From: Escherichia phage JSE
Direction: 5' to 3' (one strand)
Sequence record: EU863408
DNA length: 64,000 bases
Made by a program: the position numbers and the translations under genes. The notes under the pieces are model-generated. The model was not told the origin of the DNA. It searched no databases and saw only the letters and a program-made list of their open reading frames with translations. Below, piece by piece: positions 18,539 to 61,570 of the stretch (position 1 is its first letter; every line of letters starts with the position of its first letter).

Positions 18539-19002
18539 CATTATGTTCAGCGTGGTTCGCTACTCCCGCGCCCGTTCTCTTGCGAACTGCTACATGTCAC
18601 CATGTAGATCAGACTATATCACATTCTCATAGAGAATCCTGCCATTTCGAATCGCTTGATTCTACTCTACTCGGTTCGTTACCCTTTCGATAGTCGTTGA
18701 ACAACTGCATCTTTAAGCTCATTTTGATCAAACGGTGTTCTCTTACAGTATCCGCTATAATTCTTCACCCTGATACGGATTAGACACCAGTTTAATGTAG
18801 TCGTTTAATGCTTCCTCGTTATGTATTTCGTACTTTCTTAAAATGTCTTTCATCTCGCGCCTCCAATGTATATCAATATCTATATACATTATAAGACACG
18901 TTAGCTCAAAATGCAACTGCTGCTGATTGTCTCCTTAGAGATTTCCCAGCAATTAAGCAGGTTATTCGATCACTGTCACCAGTGAAAGCCCCATATCAGT
19001 TT
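18539..19002 (-). mobile_element. group I intron in gene 43 (464 nt, no endonuclease ORF)
   Basis: exon 1 ends ...TSL (CCCU|) then in-frame stop; intron AAACUGAUAUGGGG...GAACAUAAUG|; contains UUCAACGACUA and GAUAUAGUCU cores; splicing restores DLTSLYPSII. Confidence 0.8.
18755..18853 (-). CDS. small intron-internal ORF (32 aa)
   Basis: hand-translated MKDILRKYEIHNEEALNDYIKLVSNPYQGEEL; SD GGAGG; no endonuclease motif. Confidence 0.25.
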   Translation of the reverse strand: MKDILRKYEIHNEEALNDYIKLVSNPYQGEEL

Positions 19003-35633: not shown

Positions 35634-35661
35634 CGATGTGAGCATTATACACGAGCTAATC
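35634..35661 (-). promoter_or_regulatory. sigma70-type early promoter
   Basis: minus strand TTGACA, 16-nt spacer, TATAAT. Confidence 0.55.
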
Positions 35662-35667
35662 CGGTTG

Positions 35668-35699
35668 TCAACACCCCAAAACGAAAAAGCCGACCCTTT
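35668..35699 (-). terminator. intrinsic terminator after nrdD
   Basis: minus RNA hairpin CGAUCC-GAAA-GGGUCG then GCUUUUUCGUUUU. Confidence 0.55.
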
Positions 35700-35714
35700 C
35701 GGATCGACTAAAAA

Positions 35715-36707
35715 TTACATGTGCTTAACGCGGTTTACCATCTCGGAGTGTTTCCCGTGGTTAAATGGACGCAGATCAACAGATCCAAGATATCCACTAA
35801 CGCGACGGATAACATTCATCTTTTCCAGATTGTCATTTCCGCAATCAGGGCAAACAAAACCAGACTCGGTCGCTCTCATTTCCTTATTAGATCCGCATAC
35901 ATGACATACATCAGAAGGAGTATTAACACCGAAGTAGTGCAATTTATCCATTGCATAGTCTACTACAGTTTCAAGACCTTTCAGGTTGTTTTTCATGTCT
36001 GGGAACTCAACATAAGAGATCATGCCACCGGACGCCAGCCAGTGATAATCTTTCTCAAAGTCGATTTTCTCAAATGGTGTGACTTTCCGGTCTACGTCAA
36101 GGTGGAATGAGTTGGTGTACCAGTCTTTATCGGTAGCACCCTTAACAATACCAAATTGCTCTCTGTCCAGTCGATTAAATCGATAGCAAAGGCTCTCGGC
36201 TGGCGTACCGTAAAGACTAAACCCAAGTCCGGTTTCGTCCTTCCATTTTTCAGTATAATGACGCAAGATCTTAAGAATATGTTTACCGTATCGCTGCGCA
36301 TCTTCCGAATCAAACGGATGAACACCAAACAGGACGCTCAATACCTCATGTAAACCAATATATCCAAGAGAGATACTAGCGCGACCATCTTTCAGCACTT
36401 CCAAAATTTCATCGTTTTGATGAATACGGAAAAATGCACCTTCTGTATACAGTACAGGAGCAACATTGGCTTTAGCCCCTTTTAAAGCGTCTACGCGACT
36501 CATAAGCGCATCAAAGCAAATAGGCATACGATTAGCTAGCTCTTGTTCGAATAGCTCAATTCTGCGCATTACAGACGCTTTACCAGCACGACGCGCGGCA
36601 ATAAGAGCAATACGCGGAAGATTCAGAGTCACAACACCCAAGTTATTACGTCCGTCTAATACTTCCTCGCCTTTCTCGTTATGCCACACACCCAGGAAAC
36701 TTCTACA
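35715..36707 (-). CDS. nrdD: anaerobic ribonucleotide reductase NrdD, exon 2
   Basis: 330 aa starting CRSFLGVW; glycyl-radical motif RVSGYLG; C-terminal CxxC...CxxC. Confidence 0.85.
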   Translation of the reverse strand, partial: CRSFLGVWHNEKGEEVLDGRNNLGVVTLNLPRIALIAARRAGKASVMRRIELFEQELANRMPICFDALMSRVDALKGAKANVAPVLYTEGAFFRIHQNDEILEVLKDGRASISLGYIGLHEVLSVLFGVHPFDSEDAQRYGKHILKILRHYTEKWKDETGLGFSLYGTPAESLCYRFNRLDREQFGIVKGATDKDWYTNSFHLDVDRKVTPFEKIDFEKDYHWLASGGMISYVEFPDMKNNLKGLETVVDYAMDKLHYFGVNTPSDVCHVCGSNKEMRATESGFVCPDCGNDNLEKMNVIRRVSGYLGSVDLRPFNHGKHSEMVNRVKHM

Positions 36708-37467
36708 CATTATTTGTTCAGGGTAGGTCGCTAATCTACCCCCGCCTTTCGGCTGCTACATGTCGCCATGCAGATCAGACTATATCTTCTATCTTTCGAT
36801 AGTCTACCATTTCGGATCGCTTGATCCTACGCCGCTACATTCATCACGGCTAGTCGTTAGGCATTTCATAGCGGAACTCATATTCATAAGTATTGGTTTT
36901 TCTACCATCAAGAATTGCAGATACATTTTTACGATGCAAGCCCAATGTTTCAGAAAGACTTCTCACGCTTTTAAATGTCTGCTCTTGTCCGGTTTCTTTA
37001 TGGATCGCAGTAACCTTATATGAACGACGTTTGAACTTATAGCACCCGTTTTCGTAACCTTCTTTCGTGTTTTCGCTGTTAGTCCCCCACTCAAGGTTAG
37101 ATGCATCGTTTATAGTTTTATCGTCGTTTTTATGTTTCACATATCGATAGCCGTTAGGATTCGGAATCCAACATTCAGCCACAATAACATGAACACGCAA
37201 ACATAAAGGTTTCTTGTCTCTCCTTACCCTTACTAATGTATATCCGGTATTGTTTTCTATCCAGGTACTCAACTGTTTACCTTTAGGAGAAAACACCCGT
37301 CCATCTTTCGATACCATATATTCGGTATCACGAATTTTTCTAAGTTCCATAATATATCCTCTTATACACATTGGCGTAAAGAGAATATGACCGCTATGTT
37401 TAGCACGGGATTGTCTTCTAGAGAGTTCCCCCGTTTAGGCAGATTTTAGATGAGCTGTTTAAAGTTT
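36708..37467 (-). mobile_element. group I intron in nrdD carrying an HNH homing endonuclease gene
   Basis: exon 1 ends ...SPMG (GGGU|); intron AAACUUUAAAC...GGGGGAACUCUCUAGAAGACAAUCCCGUGCUAAA...CUGAACAAAUAAUG|; cores CCUAACGACUAG and GAUAUAGUCUGAUCUGCAUGG shared with the gene 43 intron. Confidence 0.8.
36850..37350 (-). CDS. intron-encoded HNH homing endonuclease (NUMOD4/HNH_3 with IENR1-like tail)
   Basis: track ORF 36850-37371; start MELRK at 37348-37350 with SD AAGAGGA; HVIVAECWIPNPNGYRYVKHKNDDKTINDASNLEWGT; stop overlaps intron core. Confidence 0.8.
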   Translation of the reverse strand: MELRKIRDTEYMVSKDGRVFSPKGKQLSTWIENNTGYTLVRVRRDKKPLCLRVHVIVAECWIPNPNGYRYVKHKNDDKTINDASNLEWGTNSENTKEGYENGCYKFKRRSYKVTAIHKETGQEQTFKSVRSLSETLGLHRKNVSAILDGRKTNTYEYEFRYEMPND

Positions 37468-38337
37468 ACCCATCGGGCTAACCGGAACACTAGATCCAGT
37501 GATGCTACGGTTATTCTTCGCAGAGATATAATCAGGGTAAAGACGCTTACTAGAACATTCCAATGCAAGTTGCTTAATGTCGTAGTTCGGATCTTCCGGT
37601 TTAAGGTTTAATCCTTCTTCTAAGAACATCACCAGCTTAGGAAACACCGGAGTTATACCGTCTTTACCTAAACCTTTAGTTCGAACTTTCAGGATCGCTT
37701 TCTGAATCAGTTTTTCTTCCCAGCTAGTACCCATACCAAAGGTTAAAGTCACAAAAGGTGTTTGACCGTTGGTAGAGAACAAAGTGTTGATCTCATATTC
37801 CAACGCCTGATATCCGTCTAACGTTTCTTTTTCTGTTTTCTCTTGTGCATAGAGAGTATCAGCTTTGATTCCGTAGGTTTCGGCATCAGCAAGGTGTTTA
37901 TGATATGTTTTCTTAACATACGGCGCTAACACCTGGTCGATGTTTGCAATTGTGGTCCCGCCATATTGATGACTTGCCACCTGTGCGATAATTTGAGCGG
38001 TTACAGCACATGCAACACCGATCGATTTAGGACTTTCGATTTGTGCGCTACCCAATTTAAAACCATTCTCTAACATGTCTTTGAGATTAACAAGACAGCA
38101 GTTAGTAAACGGCATAGCTGGTGCATAATCCATATCATGATAATGAATATCACCGTCTACATGCGCTTTATAGATGTGCTCAGGTAACACGGTTTTAGCA
38201 ATATGTTTAGACACAGCGCCAGCAATCAGATCTCGACGTGTCGGGAATGTTCGCGCGTCTTTGTTCGCGTTCTCTTTGCTTACTTCGTTTTCTTTACCCG
38301 TTGCGATCTCTGTAATGTCTTTGATTAGTTTTTCCAT
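37468..38337 (-). CDS. nrdD: anaerobic ribonucleotide reductase NrdD, exon 1
   Basis: 290 codons ending ...SSVPVSPMG; in-frame stop 2 codons into the intron; joins to CRSFL of exon 2. Confidence 0.85.
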
Positions 38338-61366: not shown

Positions 61367-61397
61367 CAACTTTTTTTAAAAAAAATTTTTAGGCAAT

Positions 61398-61424
61398 AAA
61401 AAAGCCACTCCGAAGAGTGGCTTA
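61398..61424 (-). terminator. intrinsic terminator
   Basis: minus RNA GCCACUC-UUCG-GAGUGGC then UUUUUUAUU. Confidence 0.6.
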
Positions 61425-61570
61425 TAGGGAAGGTAGCGAATCTTCCTTGTCTCCAACCTGCTAGCGGCCTAGCAAGTGAATGCTTTAGCGTACCGGATCG
61501 CCCATACGCTGCAATAAATGCGGCTAGGTGACGTCCAAATCATTCTAACCGCGCTGTCTTTAGTTCACTA

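Follow-up and report, generated by a model that had tools for sequence, protein, structure and literature searches.

A candidate mobile group I intron with an HNH homing endonuclease gene at a second intron site in phage nrdD, found in Escherichia phage JSE

The td and sunY introns of bacteriophage T4, the latter lying within nrdD, are experimentally known to splice themselves, and the T4 nrdD intron encodes the GIY-YIG endonuclease I-TevII, as a first-pass annotation of the DNA considered here had correctly stated. Reviews of the T4 family list introns only of td, nrdB and nrdD for the T-even phages, plus the relic of an intron in gene 43 of phage JSE (PMC2993671; PMC2988022). Other ribonucleotide reductase genes of phages are also known to hold group I introns with genes for HNH endonucleases, namely the RB3 nrdB intron with I-TevIII and the Twort nrdE intron with I-TwoI (PMC1865063; PMC3653736). 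The present analysis concerns the nrdD gene of Escherichia phage JSE, an RB49-like member of Krischvirus, as it lies on the minus strand of a 64,000-nucleotide (nt) stretch of sequence record EU863408, which is called the window below. We read the insert that interrupts this gene, with a probability of about 0.87, as a mobile, self-splicing group I intron of subgroup IA2 that carries an HNH homing endonuclease. In the literature searched, which did not include the first paper on JSE (Denou 2009), the element was not described as an intron. A Salmonella phage paper mentions a "split nrdD" whose homing endonuclease is 53% identical to a JSE protein (PMC4837284), and a paper on Felix O1 reports no introns (PMC3185647).

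A megablast comparison with 50,697 phage records returned about 60 Krischvirus (RB49-like) records with an intact nrdD of 1863 base pairs (bp), whose flanks are about 98% identical to those of JSE and which lack exactly 760 nt. The middle 760 nt is covered by none of these matches, and an exact gap against some 60 uninterrupted genes argues that the insertion is not due to chance. The splice boundaries fall at 37468/37467 and 36708/36707, with U preceding the 5' splice site and G as the last intron base. Exon 1 ends in GTT AGC CCG ATG GGT (VSPMG) and exon 2 begins with TGT AGA AGT TTC CTG GGT GTG TGG, and the junction (...CCG ATG GGT / AAAC...AATAATG / TGT AGA AGT...) does not allow a shift of even one base. 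Removal of the 760 nt gives a NrdD of 620 amino acids (aa), 618/620 of them identical to the uninterrupted RB49 protein, and the ligated exon junction would be expected to read ...CCGAUGGGU/UGUAGAAGU... (in RNA, ...AUGGGU/UGUAGA...). The insertion point falls between the codons for Gly290 and Cys291, inside the SPMGCRSFL block, and Cys291 is the equivalent of T4 Cys290.

The first-pass annotation had proposed an insert of this size in nrdD, and both its coordinates and its exon ends hold up against the intact genes and the unshiftable junction. The exon junction, which it had proposed to compare with NrdD homologues, matches them, and the two strings that it quoted from the intron are present, GGGGGAACUCUCUAGAAGACAAUCCCGUGCUAAA as intron nt 36-69 and CCUAACGACUAG as nt 607-618, where the UAG is the stop codon of the internal open reading frame (ORF). 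The program-made ORF listing breaks the locus into an N-terminal NrdD fragment (38337..37459, 292 aa, terminus ...VSPMGKL), a middle ORF of 173 aa (37371..36850) and a second NrdD fragment, the C-terminal one (36710..35715, MCRSFLGVW...). The GenBank record for JSE likewise has two nrdD coding sequences and an endonuclease, with no intron; ACL78008.1 is an exact match of the N-terminal half and ACL78007.1, "Homing endonuclease", an exact match of the 173-aa ORF. An intein was considered and rejected, as the insert is not an in-frame ORF and a stop lies two codons past the junction. The features of the locus are collected in Table 1.

Table 1. Features of the interrupted nrdD locus, in positions of the window; helices and the ribosome-binding-site hairpin are predictions
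Feature	Position	Strand	Remarks
nrdD exon 1	38337..37468	-	Codons 1-290, end ...SPMG; Pfam NRDD 2e-76, profile positions 1-250; collinear with RB49 nrdD nt 1-870
P1 hairpin	37473-37450	-	Exon AUGGGU (37473-37468) with internal guide GCUCAU (37455-37450), U·G at splice site
Group I intron (predicted)	37467..36708	-	760 nt, AAACUUUAAACAGCUCAU ... CUGAACAAAUAAUG; the stretch absent from about 60 Krischvirus nrdD genes
P10 guide	37467-37456	-	Intron nt 1-12, AAACUUUAAACA; pairs with the start of exon 2
5' half of core	37443-37391	-	P3 5' strand (UCUGCC), P4-P5 hairpin, P6 5' strand (CAUAGCGG)
Hairpin burying the ribosome-binding site (predicted)	37388-37354	-	Covers AAGAGGA; RNAfold -14.4 kcal/mol, z = -2.1
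HNH homing endonuclease ORF, I-HmuI-like (putative)	37350..36850	-	166 aa plus stop, in P6 loop
3' half of core	36874-36708	-	P6 3' strand (CCGCUAUG), P7 5' strand GACUA, P7.1, P7.2, P3 3' strand, P8; then, to 36708, J8/7 and P7 3' strand (AAGAUAUAGUC), P9, P9.1, P9.2, terminal G at 36708
nrdD exon 2	36707..35715	-	Codons 291-620, begins CRSFLGVW; Pfam NRDD 2e-91, positions 264-562; glycyl-radical domain, Gly_radical 4e-23; collinear with RB49 nt 871-1863
P10 target in exon 2	36707-36696	-	Intron-linked synonymous changes at +4, +6 and +9
Terminator-like hairpin	35709-35688	-	9-bp stem then T run, from a pattern scan only; lies just past the stop codon of nrdD

The insert is classed here as a group I intron of the T4 td/sunY type, subgroup IA2, with a complete predicted core. 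The td intron of T4 can be aligned with its 5' 77 nt and its 3' 167 nt, and the T4 nrdD (sunY) intron gives a still better alignment. Seven introns were aligned for the prediction of structure (those of JSE, phiS, nieznany, EPFV3, Mushroom, Vibrio phage F88 and T4 td), the ORF-bearing loop of each being replaced by GAAA before folding. From the seven ORF-less cores RNAalifold recovered P1, the long-range helix P3, P4, P5, P6, P7.1, P7.2, P9, P9.1 and P9.2. The P1 hairpin was found without any prior structure, its pairs being kept in six or seven of the seven introns and the U·G pair at the splice site (columns 8-33) in six. MAFFT misaligned P8 and part of P6, and P8 was folded sequence by sequence with RNAfold instead, which gave a hairpin of 5-11 bp, differing in sequence, in 7/7 introns.

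With P7 added as a pseudoknot the consensus structure holds 62 pairs in 12 helices; 98.4% of the 434 cells are standard pairs, and 27 of the 62 pairs have changed on both sides. The observed values were attained in 0/500 shuffles, and when the 3' partners were slid by 1-3 columns pairing fell to 35-44%, with 0-4 pairs changed on both sides. Compensatory changes occur in each of P3, P4, P5 and P6, and also in both P7.1 (GCCG/CGGC) and P7.2 (GGAUC/GAUCC); the presence of these last two helices between P7 and the 3' strand of P3 is a hallmark of the IA introns. Both strands of P7 are present, GACUA at 36855-36851 and UAGUC within 36788-36778, and are identical to those of td and sunY; in introns of this type P7, flanked by the consensus elements ..AACGACUA.. 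and the J8/7 string of Table 1, is expected to form a pseudoknot with P3. The stop codon of the ORF (UAG, 36852-36850) overlaps the 5' strand of P7, inside GACUAG, and the final 25 nt of the ORF are at the same time part of the ribozyme core, making up the 3' strand of P6, J6/7 and the 5' strand of P7.

The product of the ORF in the P6 loop is predicted to be an HNH homing endonuclease of the I-HmuI family. The Pfam model I-HmuI_NUMOD-like matches at 32.3 bits, over its cut-off of 27, and the alignment with I-HmuI (PDB 1U3E) runs over the whole length of the protein, the E value being 4.6e-9 when the single sequence is used and 4.6e-16 with a five-sequence profile, whose match spans residues 4-172 of 174. 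These matches agree with the first-pass annotation, which had called the enzyme HNH and not GIY-YIG. HNH_3 is matched at E <= 0.1 by all five same-site homologues (JSE included), the best E being 1.3e-10. In HNH enzymes a histidine acts as general base, one asparagine is structural and another binds metal, and H73, N85 and N94 (166-aa numbering) align with His75, Asn87 and Asn96 of I-HmuI and are invariant in the five homologues. Between JSE and phiS the ORF has accumulated 17 synonymous differences and a single amino-acid change, a ratio of non-synonymous to synonymous change (pN/pS) of about 0.03, which indicates that the endonuclease gene is under purifying selection.

GenBank begins the ORF at the upstream ATG 37371 (173 aa). 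The likely start codon is ATG 37350, giving 166 aa, because AAGAGGA precedes it and the N-termini of the homologues align there; this Shine-Dalgarno sequence (37363-37357) lies 6 nt upstream of the ATG. Translation of I-TevI is controlled by a hairpin at its ribosome-binding site, and by analogy with the T4 endonucleases the hairpin predicted over AAGAGGA probably limits translation of the JSE enzyme. The introns of Felixounavirus and of the Vibrio phage are predicted to have a hairpin of this kind, and those of Phapecoctavirus and Vequintavirus are not. A promoter scan gave sites no commoner than in shuffled sequence, the sole site near the ORF being placed where transcription would start within it, and an exact T4-type late promoter (TATAAATA) was not found upstream of the ORF.

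The intron is also linked to a tract of changes in the flanking exon. At 36704, 36702 and 36699, CGT AGC of RB49 has become AGA AGT, with all three changes synonymous. All ten Krischvirus alleles that bear the intron (JSE, phiS and eight contigs from metagenomes or the SRA) read TGT AGA AGT, and 5/5 of the intron-less alleles examined read TGT CGT AGC; phiS and the alleles L016 and L018 also share TTA at +13/+15 with the Vequintavirus exon. Through these changes intron nt 1-7 gain a pairing of 7 bp with exon-2 nt 5-11, which is added to the guide-adjacent ACA/UGU pairs, and RNAduplex scores P10 at -4.3 kcal/mol with the JSE exon 2 versus -0.1 kcal/mol with an exon 2 of the RB49 type. In the introns of Mushroom and F88 the same region forms P10 helices of 8 uninterrupted bp (-10.5 and -11.4 kcal/mol, respectively), which covary with their own, quite different exons. 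The JSE tract shows the pattern expected from co-conversion during homing, and it also improves the alignment of the 3' splice site. Its origin could be co-conversion, selection on P10 or protection from the endonuclease, three possibilities that are inseparable in silico.

The distribution of the element is patchy. Within Krischvirus it occurs in JSE, phiS and the eight metagenomic contigs, always at GGT/TGT, and is absent from the roughly 60 records mentioned above. A homologous intron with an HNH ORF occupies the same MG/CRS site in phages of Phapecoctavirus (nieznany), Vequintavirus (EPFV3) and Felixounavirus (Mushroom, UAB_Phi87) and in Vibrio phage F88, and none of these relatives is annotated as an intron, the literature searched speaking of no more than the "split nrdD" and its endonuclease (PMC4837284). 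The insertion point is identical throughout, the cores are 70-78% identical and the P6-loop HNH ORFs 50-55% identical; four of the five ORFs terminate in YEMPND and overlap the ribozyme core, whereas the Felixounavirus ORF stops before the core. The same-site introns differ from that of JSE in belonging to other phage families, in the sizes of P7.2, P8 and P9.1, and in P10 guides that are tuned to the exon 2 of each host. A search of IMG/VR for the exact 5' junction pattern of the intron returned 0 contigs.

Several further elements were observed in the course of these searches. The Krischvirus-like nrdD of L016 (Logan SRR28822591, positions 300-1090), which has the JSE-type intron, holds a second insert in exon 1 (...FSTNG/QTPF...) with group I-like ends (AAGAGAUAGUC near the 3' end) and a 170-aa ORF, at a site unlike that of T4 or JSE. 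In Mushroom (L002, 4242-4742) a second, free-standing homing endonuclease gene, which contains NUMOD3, lies between nrdD and nrdG. The 168-nt 3' core of the JSE intron matches 829 phage records, whose hosts include Pseudomonas, Yersinia, Pectobacterium, Vibrio, Bacillus, Klebsiella and Campylobacter, in genes for terminase, DNA polymerase, RNA polymerase beta, thymidylate synthase and others; many of the matches have no feature annotation, so that introns of the td/sunY type appear to be widely under-annotated. Elsewhere in the window, an element at 18539-19002 on the minus strand scores 42.9 bits against RF00028 (E 1.4e-7), with a CUGAACAUAAUG tail as in the nrdD intron and only a short ORF remnant, which fits the JSE gene 43 intron with its truncated endonuclease (PMC2993671). 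A weak Rfam match at 61368-61487, also on the minus strand, to EF3314_EF3315, an Enterococcus small RNA (26.5 bits versus a gathering score of 100, E 0.055), is most likely due to chance. Just 3' of the terminator-like hairpin of nrdD lies a perfect TTGACA-16-TATAAT promoter for the next gene (35671-35644, minus strand), and the layout of hairpin and promoter (35644-35709) resembles the early promoter/stem-loop cassettes described for phages of the RB49 type.

We model the element as a splicing-competent and mobile intron, which it very probably is. In the precursor mRNA, the exon sequence AUGGGU would pair with the guide GCUCAU to form P1, the U·G pair falling where cleavage takes place. From P3 to P9.2 the core would fold around P7, the guanosine-binding helix, and an external G would attack after the U. 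P10 would then align exon 2, the terminal G would be released, and an intact 620-aa NrdD would be restored. During mixed infection the endonuclease would most likely nick or cut an intron-less nrdD beside the insertion site, and recombinational repair would copy in the intron together with a few exon-2 bases. As such the element is an unannotated instance of a well-known selfish element of phages, and it calls for no new mechanism.

The exact insertion, the covarying helices, the family of the endonuclease and its purifying selection, the patchiness of the distribution and the exon changes linked to the intron are direct observations; we infer splicing from anatomy, and mobility, like cleavage, from homology, and this reliance on inference is the first of several points that weigh against a mobile, self-splicing intron. 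The match to the Rfam model RF00028 is partial, confined to the 3' half, and reaches 27.4 bits, where the gathering score is 50. P7 is invariant in 7/7 introns, which makes covariation uninformative about this helix; the P6 strands were picked by eye before the alignment, which biases the count for helix 6; and the covariation as a whole comes from only seven related sequences, a small sample. As for the endonuclease, HNH_3 falls just under its cut-off (22.0 versus 24.8 bits) and NUMOD4 is weak (14.2 bits versus a cut-off of 23.4), and the residue aligned with Asp74 of I-HmuI, which we take to be a metal ligand, is Lys in JSE (Lys in 4/5 and Cys in 1/5 of the same-site homologues). Finally, nrdD is probably dispensable in aerobic culture, and a non-splicing insert could therefore be tolerated in the laboratory.

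Some of these points can be put in proportion. At the gathering threshold an Rfam search of the whole window found nothing. As a control, the T4 introns were scored against RF00028, and td reached 40.3 bits, nrdB 35.7 and sunY 105; td and nrdB fall below the gathering score because ORFs in P6 split their cores, whereas the core of sunY is contiguous. Since proven T4 introns with split cores also fail, the low score of the JSE intron is not evidence against it, the gathering score being a matter of the database and not of biology. The first-pass annotation had named NUMOD4 and HNH_3 as motifs of the ORF; this needs correcting, in that NUMOD4 is weak and HNH_3 just misses its cut-off in the JSE protein, although the homologues do match HNH_3.

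Relics are known in related phages, among them the truncated T4 I-TevIII and the JSE gene 43 intron (PMC2993671), and together with the sub-threshold Rfam score they provide the case for a decayed, splicing-dead insert and a JSE nrdD that is a pseudogene, tolerated since a class III reductase is not needed aerobically. Decay of this kind is nonetheless very unlikely: both exons are intact, with only two residues of the joined protein differing from RB49, the endonuclease ORF is intact with a pN/pS of 0.03, and the Rfam scores of proven T4 introns are similarly low. Furthermore, only 5/259 non-ORF intron positions vary among the ten alleles; three of these lie in helices, and two of the three keep pairing (G-C/G·U and A-U/G·U).

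It is very unlikely that a free-standing HNH gene simply splits nrdD, leaving two separately translated polypeptides that reassemble with no splicing, although this is how GenBank annotates JSE, and likewise phiS, nieznany and Mushroom. Such an arrangement has a precedent in the nrdA gene of Aeromonas phage Aeh1, which is split by mobE (PMC3653736), and the last three bases of the intron are an ATG in frame with exon 2, which opens the MCRSFL... ORF. This ATG is not preceded by a Shine-Dalgarno sequence (CCCUGAACAAAUAAUG), however, and the ORF is surrounded by a full, covarying group I core with precise U/G boundaries; the break would also separate Gly290 from the conserved Cys291 in the SPMGCRSFL block. 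Hardly credible, finally, is descent of the T4 nrdD (sunY) intron itself by vertical inheritance with I-TevII replaced by an HNH gene, for in spite of the 77% core identity, the same guide GCUCAU, the shared absence of P2 and the common P7.1 loop, the site (codon 180 versus 290/291, with the T4 SPMGCRSFL block uninterrupted) and the position of the ORF (downstream of P9 in sunY, in P6 in JSE) already refute it, some 60 Krischvirus genomes have no nrdD intron of any kind, and the same-site relatives lie in unrelated phage genera.

Within the reading of the element as a mobile, self-splicing intron, we offer one further proposal only tentatively. A sunY-like ribozyme may have switched to a new site in nrdD, where the exon hexamer AUGGGU still suits the guide GCUCAU that reads AUGAGU in T4, an HNH gene may independently have colonised P6, and the composite may then have spread to at least five unrelated lineages (Krischvirus, Phapecoctavirus, Vequintavirus, Felixounavirus and a Vibrio phage group), retuning P10 to the local exon each time. 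If true, this would be a natural case of guide-directed site switching combined with homing across genera, for which a 2010 review found convincing evidence to be lacking in T4-related phages (PMC2993671).

The result would correct the records of JSE and of many Felixounavirus, Phapecoctavirus, Vequintavirus and Vibrio phages, which list two nrdD fragments and a "homing endonuclease" or "hypothetical protein" in place of one spliced gene. Phages of the JSE type are candidates for therapy, and knowledge that nrdD is intact rather than disrupted would be of practical value. The locus adds a second nrdD intron site to that of T4, at the codon for the cysteine equivalent to T4 Cys290, and such a position agrees with the rule that the codons hit by homing elements are the most conserved ones. 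The synonymous changes that accompany the intron in exon 2 provide a case in which co-conversion, selection on P10 and target immunity might be separated.

Among the known systems, the RB3 nrdB and Twort nrdE introns differ from that of JSE in lying in other reductase genes and at other sites, and they are set against it here by description only; I-TevIII, an HNH enzyme with a zinc finger, is a dimer and makes double-strand breaks. I-HmuI, from the DNA polymerase intron of Bacillus phage SPO1, resembles the JSE endonuclease in size (174 versus 166 aa), in being encoded by a phage group I intron, in the HNH His/Asn/Asn residues and in its C-terminal I-HmuI_NUMOD-like DNA-binding domain. The two differ in target, DNA polymerase versus nrdD, and in Asp74 versus Lys, and their identity is about 25-30% (estimated from alignments, not computed); I-HmuI nicks one strand, and the JSE enzyme may nick or cut.

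The T4 td intron, with I-TevI, shares with JSE an ORF looped out of P6 whose 3' end enters the AUGCCUAACGACUA element, the same helices from P3 to P9.2 and the same 3' tail (CUGAACAnAAUG). It differs in its host gene, in having a P2 hairpin, in a core only 65% identical and in encoding a GIY-YIG endonuclease. The first-pass annotation had described the 5' region of the JSE intron as td-like, and the assignment to group I introns of the td/sunY type stands, but the core is nearer to that of sunY.

The closest ribozyme is thus that of T4 nrdD itself. The sunY intron lies in the same host gene, its P1-P9 core is 77% identical to that of JSE, and the guide GCUCAU is the same, facing the exon hexamer AUGAGU in T4 and AUGGGU in JSE; both introns lack P2, share the P7.1 loop UGAUGAAUGUA and have homologous P9.2 helices and 3' tails. 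The T4 intron is inserted after nt 538, in codon 180 (GAGT/AT, QAYE/YEV), whereas the JSE site at 290/291 is 110 codons downstream, within the block that in T4 is uninterrupted; the T4 ORF lies 3' of P9 and the core, not in the P6 loop, and its product, I-TevII, is a GIY-YIG enzyme, unlike the I-HmuI-like HNH endonuclease of JSE. The first-pass suggestion of the same intron-bearing gene with a mere exchange of endonuclease cargo fails on the insertion site and on the position of the ORF. The comparison is a natural one, of related ribozymes in the same gene with different endonuclease families in different loops, and bears on how mobile introns are assembled. As judged here, the ribozyme of the JSE element is related to sunY and interrupts the same gene, at another site and with an endonuclease of another family placed in another loop.

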